IMG/VR virus record: IMGVR_UViG_2671180292_000001
Location: 32,001-96,000 of that record
DNA: 64,000 nucleotides
Source of the DNA: a virus
Taxonomy: Duplodnaviria; Caudoviricetes
Strand: one strand, 5' to 3'
Made by a program: the position numbers and the translations under genes. This document shows, piece by piece, positions 9,639 through 11,542 of the stretch; positions within the stretch are counted from its first letter, which is position 1; the number at the start of each line of letters is the position of its first letter. The notes under the pieces are model-generated. The model was not told where the DNA came from and searched no databases. It was given only the letters and a program-made list of their open reading frames with translations.

Positions 9639-10628
9639 TTAGAGGACGAACACGAATGCGCGCATGAACGACTGGATCCTGCTGTAGGTGGCCCCGCCGG
9701 AGCCGCGGCCCATTGTCACGTCGAGCGGCTCGTTCAGCGTGGCTCCCGGGGCGATCACCCGGTTGTAGACCTTCGTCGTCTGGCAGTGGACATTCGTCGC
9801 CGCGCTGCTGCCTCGGTTGGCGGTGTACACCATGCTGTCGGTGCTGATGCCGTACTCCGCCCCCGAGCTCGCGGGCAGGTCGAAAGCTACATCGACTTCG
9901 ACTTCGCAGACGACGAACGCCTCCCTGCACGGGTCGGGGTTGGTGATCGAAAGATGGCGTGTGGTGACGACGTTGTCGCTCCCGGTAGGTACGGCGGTGG
10001 CGGGGTAGGACTGGTTGACCGAGTCCTGCACATACGTCGCTCGACCCCTCGGCTCGGACCGGAGAGTGCCAGTCGAGTCGCAAAAAACACGGCCCGCGTT
10101 CGCGTCGACCGGGCACGAGTACGGCCACGGCGTGACCTTGGCCGCCAGCGGTGAGGCCGCCGCTCCCGTGCCGGTCAGGCCGCACGCGCCGACGGTGAGC
10201 GCCGCCCGGAGCCCAGTCGCAGTGCACGCGAGGAGCTGGCCTGGGTTGGGGTCGATGATCGGCGCCGCCGACAGAGGGGCTCCAGTGGTGCCCTGCCCGG
10301 ACAGGTCGATACACGGCGTGTCCTGGGTGGAGACGAACGTCAACCCACCCGAACCGCCACCGCCAGCGGCGTAGATCCCACCGTCCACCCCGATCGCCGC
10401 AGCGTTCCCAGCCGCCGTCGAGATCTTCACCCGGAACTGGTTCGCAGCGTCGTCGTACTCCAGACCCGGCCCGACAGCGGCACCGACGCAGTCTTGGATG
10501 ATCTCGCAATCGCTGGCGGCGCTCGCGCTGATGACGTACGGATTGGACGCGGAGCCGTTCCCACTAATAGTCACGCCAGGGCCAGGCGCTAACGAACAAG
10601 CGCATGATCCACTGCATCCGCAACGCAA
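9639..10628 (-). CDS. Cys-rich minor tail protein
   Basis: AGGAGG RBS + TTG 10628; shares CxCxxxxGPGVT.xG.G....PYVISA and GxDGG repeats with 6808-8508. Confidence 0.7.
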   Translation of the reverse strand: MRCGCSGSCACSLAPGPGVTISGNGSASNPYVISASAASDCEIIQDCVGAAVGPGLEYDDAANQFRVKISTAAGNAAAIGVDGGIYAAGGGGSGGLTFVSTQDTPCIDLSGQGTTGAPLSAAPIIDPNPGQLLACTATGLRAALTVGACGLTGTGAAASPLAAKVTPWPYSCPVDANAGRVFCDSTGTLRSEPRGRATYVQDSVNQSYPATAVPTGSDNVVTTRHLSITNPDPCREAFVVCEVEVDVAFDLPASSGAEYGISTDSMVYTANRGSSAATNVHCQTTKVYNRVIAPGATLNEPLDVTMGRGSGGATYSRIQSFMRAFVFVL

Positions 10629-10629
10629 A

Positions 10630-11511
10630 TTAAACCTCCTGTCCTTGTATAATTGTTAAATGACTCGGAGACTTACTCAAGAGGAGATCGACTCTCGTCC
10701 CCCACGTCTCTGCGCCTGCGGCGGCATAGCCCTGAACCGGACCGGAACCCCGCGATGCAGTGCTTGCAAGGAGGCATCGAAACAGGCTTCGCGAACGCGC
10801 TACAGGGACATCCGGCGCGCCAAACGGCCGCCTCGCATCTGCCCCCGATGCGATAAGGAAATCCCCTTCAACCCCGACCGTCCTCTCGCCGCCATTCACG
10901 AGGAGTGTCGCGTCCTTCCAACCAAGTCGAAGGCAGCCAAGAAGCGAGAACGCAAGTGCTGGAAATGCGGCACCAGCGAAGTTATCCACAAGATAGGCAG
11001 GCCGGTCTGCGCCGGTTGCTACGCGCTTGGAACGACCAAGCTGCGCAACTGCGTCGATTGCGATAAGCAATTCAAGACGCGTAACAACTCGACTCGCTGC
11101 AGCCAGTGCAGTTACCGGCGACGCAAGAAGCTGGCCGACCGCAAATGCTCTCGATGTGACACGCTGATCGACTATCGGTCCAGGAACTGCCCGAAGTGCC
11201 CCGCCAAATCTGTCCCTACGGCTCCGATCGGGCACCGGCGGAAAATGCGCTACGGCTACATCGAGATCAAGACCGAAAAAGGATGGCTGCGCGAGCACGT
11301 CCACGTCATGGAGGAGCACATTGGTCGTCGCCTGTTGCCGGGCGAGTCGGTACACCACAAGAACGGGATCAGAGATGACAACCGCATCGAGAACCTCGAA
11401 CTCTGGACCCGAGCCCAGCCCGCCGGTCAGCGCGTGACCGACATGCTCTCCTGGGCGTGGGAAATCATCGACCGGTATGGCGACATGCCGCTGTGACTCG
11501 CCGTGCTCCAT
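10630..11511 (-). other. Putative translated bridging ORF antisense to HNH, from host RBS/ATG to 1 nt before the tail-gene restart
   Basis: GGGAGG-N7-ATG at 11511; frame open to TAA 10632-10630; TTG at 10628. Confidence 0.4.
10660..11496 (+). CDS. HNH endonuclease with multiple CxxC fingers, antisense to the late operon
   Basis: [12 protein letters not shown]...[25 protein letters not shown] 10648-10653 six nt before ATG (leaderless). Confidence 0.9.
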
Positions 11512-11542
11512 GGCCGGGCCTCCCAGCGGATCCCAAGGGGTC

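Follow-up and report, generated by a model that had tools for sequence, protein, structure and literature searches.

How can a nuclease gene sit backwards in an essential late operon of a phage without breaking it? The question is raised by a 64,000-nucleotide (nt) stretch of viral DNA (Duplodnaviria; Caudoviricetes), hereafter the window, which corresponds to bases 32001–96000 of the 118,494-bp IMG/VR record IMGVR_UViG_2671180292_000001, classed as a provirus. The window has a G+C content (GC) of 68%, and nearly all of its genes are on the minus strand. Within its tail module, an HNH_3 endonuclease gene (HNH1) is encoded on the plus strand, between a 66-amino-acid (aa) gene and a 329-aa gene (hereafter, the tail gene). 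A first-pass annotation, made from the letters and their open reading frames (ORFs), had noted that a ribosome-binding site (RBS) and an ATG beyond the end of HNH1 open a minus-strand frame that crosses the nuclease gene and stops beside the TTG start codon of the tail gene. Our analysis establishes that HNH1 is an insertion with defined edges, that the TTG start region is native, how the frame lengths add up and that the same arrangement recurs at a second antisense HNH gene. Translation of the frame, its coupling to the tail gene and any effect on fitness are what we infer from this anatomy (coordinates in Table 1).

Insertion of HNH1 in a tail-gene leader

The HNH1 cassette is an insertion that some natural genomes have and others lack. 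Part of the region 9600–12900 is contained in 20 of the 24 public runs listed (nine studies; manure, compost, sludge and soil metagenomes), and contigs from the runs were aligned to positions 8500–13500 of the window. Runs X1 and X2 each provide one 1144-nt contig over 10428–11571, with 1 and 2 differences, respectively, and with HNH1 in place. Run X6 provides a 3499-nt contig that matches 11542–13500 (5 differences) and 9456–10563 (49 differences), with 95 other letters replacing the 978 of positions 10564–11541, and this is a natural HNH-free allele. A second one is found on the metagenome contig L113, which has an identical gene order without the HNH gene; the products of its 345-aa, 66-aa, 329-aa and 240-aa gene homologues are 90.5%, 83.6%, 78% and 87.9% identical to those of the window, and nucleotide homology (blastn) ends at 11542 and resumes within the tail gene. 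Both HNH-free alleles break at the same point, between 11542 and 11541. Across the HNH1 site, divergence from the X6 contig rises from 5/1959 nt upstream (0.26%) to 49/1108 nt downstream (4.4%), and the site is a boundary of genetic exchange.

The host leader of the tail gene ends in a conserved motif, GCTGTGGGCCGGGCG (11556–11542); the earliest start codon of the long frame, GTG 11553, lies within it. The same motif precedes the tail-gene start of L001, a remoter HNH-free relative, and a variant of it is present in another, L025. Over the window as a whole the motif is not enriched (14 matches when up to 3 mismatches are allowed, 15.3 expected), and a repeat search of the window found no family that covers 11500–11600. 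In L113, the leader runs from a stop codon through about 48 nt to GCTGTGGGCCGGGCG, then CTACACGTACATGAGGTGTAGTC, then GTG-TCC-CGA-TGT, the beginning of MSRCGC; the tail-gene products of L025 and L001 begin with MASRCGCG and MARCGCGG. These are the alleles that the first-pass annotation had anticipated, in which a start codon is joined directly to an RCGC-type N terminus.

HNH1 matches Pfam HNH_3 (PF13392) over residues 213–253 with an E-value of 1.4e-11 and 44.3 bits against a cut-off of 24.8 (47.3 bits in a family search of its own genome). Repeated CxxC pairs occupy its N-terminal region, with the HNH domain at the C terminus. Homologues are numerous, with 2060 proteins at E ≤ 0.001 among 2500 candidates, the best of which (P0001) is 63% identical over 90%. 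An alignment of nine sequences including HNH1 shows H232, H233, N235, N241 and N245 to be invariant, and from knowledge of the fold we take these His and Asn residues to be catalytic. HNH1 appears to behave as a free-standing homing-endonuclease gene, being polymorphic and located at a divergence boundary; because it lies antisense within the untranslated leader, no tail-gene intron or intein can contain it. The perfect TATAAT hexamer that spans the putative host–insert junction is a candidate −10 box for a leaderless HNH1 transcript, judged from the −10 box alone, and a two-hexamer scan returned 0 full sigma-70 promoters for HNH1.

Start regions and open frames at two antisense HNH genes

Two candidate start regions flank HNH1 on the minus strand: GGGAGG-ATG on the leader side and AGGAGG-TTG next to the tail gene. 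The second of these has a counterpart in the HNH-free contig. Window positions 10650–10626 (ATACAAGGACAGGAGGTTTAAT-TTG) align across all 26 nt of the segment that follows the motif in L113, CTACACGTACATGAGGTGTAGTCGTG, with a score of 9 (shuffle p = 0.0012), and the alignment pairs the window's TAA with the L113 TAG and the window's TTG with the L113 GTG. Positions 11541–11509, which hold GGGAGG-ATG, have no significant match to the native start regions of the relatives (shuffle p = 0.98, 0.28 and 0.31). On these comparisons, AGGAGG-TTG belongs to the tail gene itself, and GGGAGG-ATG either arrived with the insert, in its 45-nt tail, or arose there. Because the HNH-free alleles break at 11541 and because of the L113 alignment, we assign the insert to 11541–10651; its right edge is set by that alignment and is uncertain by a few nt. 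The first-pass annotation had taken the TTG to be a restart codon supplied to the tail gene, which the alignment contradicts. A first model of our own, in which GGGAGG-ATG was native on the strength of its resemblance to L025 and L001 and of the hairpins, was dropped on the same shuffle tests.

The lengths fit this assignment exactly. Read from the GTG of the motif, the L113 leader contains a frame of 10 codons (VGRALHVHEV, then TAG), which stops 2 nt before the tail-gene start. The window ORF ends at the aligned stop, and its 924 nt exceed the 33 nt of the L113 leader frame by 891 nt, which is 297 codons. The juxtaposition of stop and restart is therefore inherited from the host leader, since the window ORF equals the L113 leader frame plus 297 codons; and the 10-codon host frame has been stretched to 307 codons by an insert of 297 codons with no stop in its antisense frame. 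The contribution of the insert is threefold: a length that is a multiple of three, a stop-free antisense frame, and a Shine–Dalgarno (SD) sequence and ATG in that frame.

The elements that the first-pass annotation had listed are all present, namely the GGGAGG-N7-ATG, the 293 open codons, the TAA-T-TTG junction and the 12 nt that separate ATG 11511 from the HNH1 stop codon. The bridging frame is the codon-aligned antisense frame of HNH1, and its GC by codon position (0.74/0.52/0.56) mirrors that of the nuclease gene (0.56/0.52/0.75). Among the three minus-strand frames at this site, the ATG frame has 1 stop, its terminal one, and the other two have 10 and 9. The frame ends in AGGAGGTT-TAA-T-TTG, in which the single T is position 10629; the AGGAGG lies 6 nt before the TTG, so that the local order is AGGAGG-TT-TAA-T-TTG. 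As in coupled cistrons, the stop is a few nt from the next start and the SD sequence is inside the upstream frame.

The same end state recurs elsewhere in the phage. HNH2 lies antisense between a 559-aa capsid-region gene and a 272-aa gene. On the minus strand, the order at its upstream side is a hairpin, GAGAGGAGGTGAAGGGCAG, ATG CCG AAT GCT and CTA (the HNH2 stop codon, reversed), and the downstream end reads GGGGGGG TAA CG ATG CCC CCT GCT GGA ATG CGC. Four HNH-free relatives of this site (capsid gene 64–67% aa identical) have the capsid stop, a hairpin, an SD sequence and a start followed by M(A/P)xxGLRK(Y/R)VEAI, and the upstream start region of the window is homologous to three of these four (p = 0.013, 0.27, 0/3000 and 0.002). 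By this sequence comparison, site 2 has its native start region upstream and a new one downstream, and the first four codons are imperfectly repeated (9/12 nt) after the new start.

At site 2, the ATG frame again has 1 stop, the other two minus-strand frames having 7 and 23, and the probability of an open frame is 0.09–0.20. The new G-run SD sequence pairs with codons 2–4, leaving the UAA and AUG in the loop. In the predicted fold, this would be the classic anatomy of coupling by unfolding, in which a terminating ribosome would open the SD sequence. A rough composite chance for the HNH2 end state is ~0.015–0.02. Sites 1 and 2 share their end state (RBS and start, open antisense frame, stop, RBS and start) and have reached it by opposite routes. 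The model of the first-pass annotation, with a native start upstream and a new restart downstream, describes site 2, and its mirror image describes site 1; the in-frame ORF and the stop–restart juxtaposition to which it had drawn attention at HNH1 are real.

Table 1 Features of the window referred to in the text (aa, amino acids; SD, Shine–Dalgarno; positions are those of the window)
Feature	Position	Strand	Details
Host leader of tail gene	11542–11593	−	aligns to L113 leader up to 11542
Inserted cassette	10651–11541	.	891 bp, exactly 297 codons; 9 nt + HNH1 + 45-nt tail
HNH1, HNH_3 endonuclease gene, 278 aa	10660–11496	+	stop codon 11494–11496; antisense in minus-strand tail operon
TATAAT, perfect	10648–10653	+	6 nt before HNH1 ATG; spans inferred host/insert junction (TAT/AAT)
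Insert-borne start signals	11509–11524	−	GGGAGG 11524–11519, 7 nt, ATG 11511–11509; from sequence
Bridging frame	10630–11553	−	293 codons from ATG 11511, 307 (924 nt) from GTG 11553; TAA 10632–10630
Hairpin	11503–11558	−	host motif GGCCGGGC + insert-borne GCCCGGCC; encloses SD GGGAGG, closes beside ATG 11511
Native tail-gene start region	10626–10650	−	AGGAGG 10640–10635; TAA 10632–10630 in spacer; TTG 10628–10626
HNH2, 496 aa	35571–37061	+	PHROG HNH and endonuclease families, best E 9.3e-22
Second bridging frame	35538–37073	−	GAGGAGG-N10-ATG 37073, 3 codons, antisense HNH2, TAA 35540–35538, CG, ATG 35535 (start of 272-aa gene)
HNH3, co-oriented HNH_3 gene, 174 aa	5095–5619	−	ATG 5619, SD GGGAGGTG
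Antisense TnpB (IS605 OrfB / Cas12f1-like TNB), 396 aa	23427–24617	+	inserted in tail module
329-aa tail-module gene (tail gene)	9639–10628	−	from ORF list; N terminus MRCGCSGSCACSLAPGPGVTISGNG
66-aa gene upstream of locus	11594–11794	−	from ORF list; stop TAG 11596–11594
345-aa minor tail protein			tail module; phrog_837, E 4.8e-69
441-aa gene			tail module; phrog_838
1535-aa ORF	14199–18806		tail module

A possible translational bridge and its rivals

The best single mechanism that we can offer is a translational bridge, which we rate as plausible on the anatomy of the sequence. The HNH_3 cassette occupies the tail gene's 5′ leader in reverse orientation, exactly between the leader motif and the native RBS. 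On the late minus-strand mRNA, ribosomes would load at the insert-borne GGGAGG-N7-ATG, translate across the antisense HNH1 and terminate beside AGGAGG-TTG, so that ~0.9 kb of foreign RNA would not be left bare and the tail gene would stay translationally linked to the upstream traffic. Contigs from an RNA run (X19, available as contigs only) cover the tail and 66-aa genes and none lies on 10671–11505, a lack of cover that is not evidence.

The components of such a bridge have precedents in phage T4, where segD is found in antisense orientation between genes 23 and 24 and mobE is translationally coupled to nrdA through UAAUGA (PMC2988022). Like the T4 seg and mob genes, HNH1 is found between essential late genes, is polymorphic among relatives and coincides with a jump in divergence; like segD, which lies beside a capsid gene, it is antisense. 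The passages of that source on segD identify no promoter of its own and describe no read-through frame (PMC2988022), whereas a TATAAT stands 6 nt upstream of the HNH1 ATG, and the frame that crosses HNH1 on the other strand runs uninterrupted, in the host sense, from an RBS to the next start. As in termination–reinitiation at nrdA/mobE, 1–2 nt separate the stop from the start that follows, an SD sequence lies just upstream, and site 2 further resembles coupled pairs in having its SD sequence in a hairpin and its stop and start in the loop. Unlike in coupled pairs, the upstream cistron would here be the antisense frame of a mobile element, with no product of its own, and the coupling is read from anatomy. 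The arrangement would combine two known kinds, homing-endonuclease insertion and translational coupling; a search of article full texts returned no account of an antisense frame that reads through a homing-endonuclease gene.

A further parallel is offered by Aeromonas phage Aeh1, in which a co-oriented mobE reportedly splits nrdA into two functional pieces. As in those genes-in-pieces, translation signals for the downstream part lie at the cassette edge, and site 2, with its new SD sequence and ATG and its four-codon copy, comes closest. Unlike the Aeh1 mobE, the inserts described here are antisense, and at site 1 the insert is in a leader and not in coding sequence.

A serious contender, which we rate almost as likely, is that the long frame is a by-product. 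HNH1 would then be an ordinary intergenic insertion and the ORF a shadow frame of a GC-rich gene, any use of ATG 11511 being without consequence; the tail gene would be translated independently from its AGGAGG-TTG site, a strong one, and late transcription would tolerate the gap, for example by antitermination. Stops in a codon-aligned antisense frame correspond to the sense codons TTA, CTA and TCA, which are rare in GC-rich genes. HNH1 has none of these in 278 codons, of which only 16 encode Leu and 14 Ser. With phage-wide codon usage (95 likely genes), 1.23 antisense stops are expected and the probability of finding none is 0.28; when the model is scaled to the higher use of A-ending codons in HNH1, the expectation is 2.3–3.0 and the probability is 0.04–0.08. 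The bridging frame has the marks of shadow ORFs, being codon-aligned, kept open by the rarity of TTA, CTA and TCA, with higher GC at first than at third codon positions (GC1 > GC3) and with 0 families matched in Pfam and PHROG. It differs from them in having an RBS and ATG 12 nt beyond the end of HNH1, an insert whose multiple-of-three length extends a host frame, and a native stop beside a start.

Several observations weigh against a bridge and on the side of a by-product. Openness by itself is weak evidence, expected in 4–28% of cases: in the same genome, the aligned antisense frame is fully open in 2 of 10 genes of 250–350 codons and in 9 of 27 genes of 150–250 codons. The in-window controls have few antisense stops themselves, with 1 in the 174 codons of the co-oriented HNH3 and 1 in the 396 of TnpB, and the depletion of TTA, CTA and TCA relative to co-oriented HNH genes that the first-pass annotation had proposed as a check is not demonstrable here, because these controls carry one each. 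The GGGAGG and ATG 11511 are inside a strong hairpin that could block initiation (11503–11558; −36.0 kcal/mol for the 66-nt fold, z-score −2.45, equalled by 3 of 200 shuffles), and GTG 11553, the alternative first codon, has no visible SD sequence. The native TTG start region is intact and unstructured (z −0.46). The stretch around TnpB (23062–24932, 1.87 kb) has 8–21 stops in every minus-strand frame; this insert is unbridged, so that either an unbridged gap is tolerated there or the TnpB insert is recent. All of the probabilities given here are, moreover, post hoc.

HNH homologues elsewhere add to the points against a bridge. The comparative set comprises the 24 of 80 HNH-homologue loci with GC ≥ 0.58, with flanks taken from gene calls based on GC3. 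Three of the 24 are antisense to both flanks: the antisense frame is open in L064 and closed in L076 and L093, two related loci with 5 and 4 antisense stops. The antisense HNH gene of MulchMansion has 3; it was set aside as a comparator, as its genome is 48% GC and the gene lies beside a transfer-messenger RNA gene. The remaining 21 loci have 0–7 antisense stops, the two with none both being shorter than 185 aa. A Fisher p of 0.034 for antisense openness is not relied on, given that the loci are too few and that the test includes the two flagged genes. In L064 (2261–2831 of another provirus, 67% GC), a 178-aa HNH_3 gene lies antisense between an amidase-like gene and a 181-aa gene, and the TGA of its open antisense frame overlaps the TTG of the next gene (TTGA), with no SD sequence at the frame's ATG; this case for bridging is suggestive only.

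What a by-product has to absorb is a series of coincidences: an open frame, an insert of a multiple of three that meets the stop in the spacer, and an in-frame SD sequence and ATG. When the 45-nt insert tail is shuffled 20000 times, an in-frame start with an SD core arises 278 times. The post hoc composite for site 1, (0.04–0.28) × 0.014 × 1/3, is ~2e-4 to 1.3e-3. Codon bias does not account for the in-frame RBS and ATG or for the exact fit of 297 codons to the host leader frame. HNH2, with its own rough composite, reaches the same end state.

The hairpin at site 1 has counterparts in the relatives: comparable folds are predicted at the start of the tail gene in L025 (z −2.87) and L001 (z −2.75), and not in L113 (z +0.96). 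The leader motif GG[G/A]CCGGGC pairs with the start of the RCGC-type tail gene at 11503–11558 of the window, 3050–3115 of L025 and 3955–4020 of L001, a fold that may be a translational control structure of this type of tail gene. Words resembling GGGCCGGGC are also found at the starts of the 579-aa gene (8534–8548) and of a capsid-region gene (38811–38825).

The remaining alternatives concern the history of the locus. It is unlikely, in our estimation, that the 45-nt tail is a start-region remnant from an earlier host, left by repair of a break immediately behind the motif, with a donor that carried the cassette behind a start codon as template, in which case the bridge frame would have been inherited and not evolved in place. 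Such a mixed history would reconcile the L113-like segment 10650–10626 with 11541–11509 and its loose similarity to the start regions of L001 and L025 (ACCCC[T/A]TGG ... GGGAG ... ATG), and it fits the jump in divergence from X6, but it rests on that non-significant resemblance and no donor was found. Single-protein scans of viral contigs gave 1 partial match for HNH1 and 0 confirmed loci for both HNH2 and the 345-aa protein; HNH1-like partial matches were present in 3 of 401 Streptomycetaceae-type genomes (best relative 46% aa identical); and megablast of 9600–12900 against 50,697 phage records gave no match. A Streptomyces sulphureus prophage, the sole return of alignment-based scans of genome and viral contigs, was rejected as a clean HNH-free allele of site 1 because its gene order differs. 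The history proposed by the first-pass annotation, in which the original start was GGGAGG-ATG 11511, within the segment ACCCCTTGG...GGGAGG...ATG, HNH1 landed behind it and the cassette supplied AGGAGG-TTG, is right about the insertion and is matched by the real geometry of site 2 and by a motif/anti-motif hairpin that closes at the ATG as in L025 and L001, but we consider it very unlikely at site 1, where the resemblance to native start regions is not significant, the closest HNH-free alleles already diverge at 11541 and AGGAGG-TTG is homologous to the native L113 start region.

If the bridging frame is translated and needed, it would show how a selfish nuclease gene can oppose an essential operon without breaking it. 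The cost would be purely synonymous, in the avoidance of TTA, CTA and TCA, together with ends phased to host translation signals. Some shadow ORFs of GC-rich phages would then be real cistrons without a product, which matters for phage annotation, and a simple sequence rule would follow for where antisense mobile genes survive. A wider form of the idea is that bridging of this kind is the only way in which backwards homing-endonuclease genes persist within the essential late operons of GC-rich phages; this we put forward tentatively and with some doubt. Equally tentative is its corollary that a stop-free antisense frame would be phased both to an RBS and start, whether of the host or brought by the cassette, and to a stop beside the next start, the geometries of sites 1 and 2 being convergent answers to one constraint. 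If the frame is a by-product, the locus is still a well-bounded case of a homing-endonuclease insertion, polymorphic and placed where a recombination boundary falls in the leader of a tail gene.

Other genes and genomic setting

Beyond the two antisense HNH genes, the window has a third HNH gene and a TnpB insert. The TGA of the co-oriented HNH3 overlaps the GTG of the next gene (GTGA), and its single antisense stop is a TCA codon. The antisense TnpB gene is adjoined by a 50-aa ribbon-helix-helix (Arc/HicB-like) ORF at 23246–23398 on the minus strand.

The tail gene has no family match of its own, and its neighbours match minor-tail and tail-fibre-type PHROG families. Its product, compared above with that of L113, is 61% identical to the L001 homologue over the best segment. 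Homologues of the 66-aa gene precede the tail gene in HNH-free L113 and also in L025 (44.8% aa identity). Downstream of the tail gene are a Gly-rich 240-aa tail-fibre-type protein and then the 579-aa protein. On its other side, the 66-aa gene is preceded by the 1535-aa ORF, the 441-aa gene and the gene for the 345-aa minor tail protein, in that order. The 1535-aa ORF is taken to be the tape-measure gene from its size and position only. Tight stop–start spacing is common in this operon, where junction gaps in the GC3-based gene chain include −4, 0, 2, 3 and 7 nt.

Three other regions of the window stand out. A codon-aligned pair of sense and antisense ORFs, 46852–47415 (−) and 46939–47244 (+), has similar GC patterns on both strands, and neither ORF matches a PHROG; the stop of the minus-strand ORF (46854–46852) overlaps the start (46855–46853) of the next minus-strand gene, 46472–46855. 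A giant ORF of 1844 aa at 28694–34228 (−), with a GC3 of 0.92, contains many internal repeat families with units of 46–300 nt, and related repeats occur in 25242–26923. At 50294–50367, where the GC of the window is lowest (0.616), a 34-nt repeat occurs in three overlapping copies spaced 20 nt from start to start (reference copy CTCGTGGGGTCTGGTGAGCGCTCGTGGAGTCTGG); these are possibly iterons or operator repeats.

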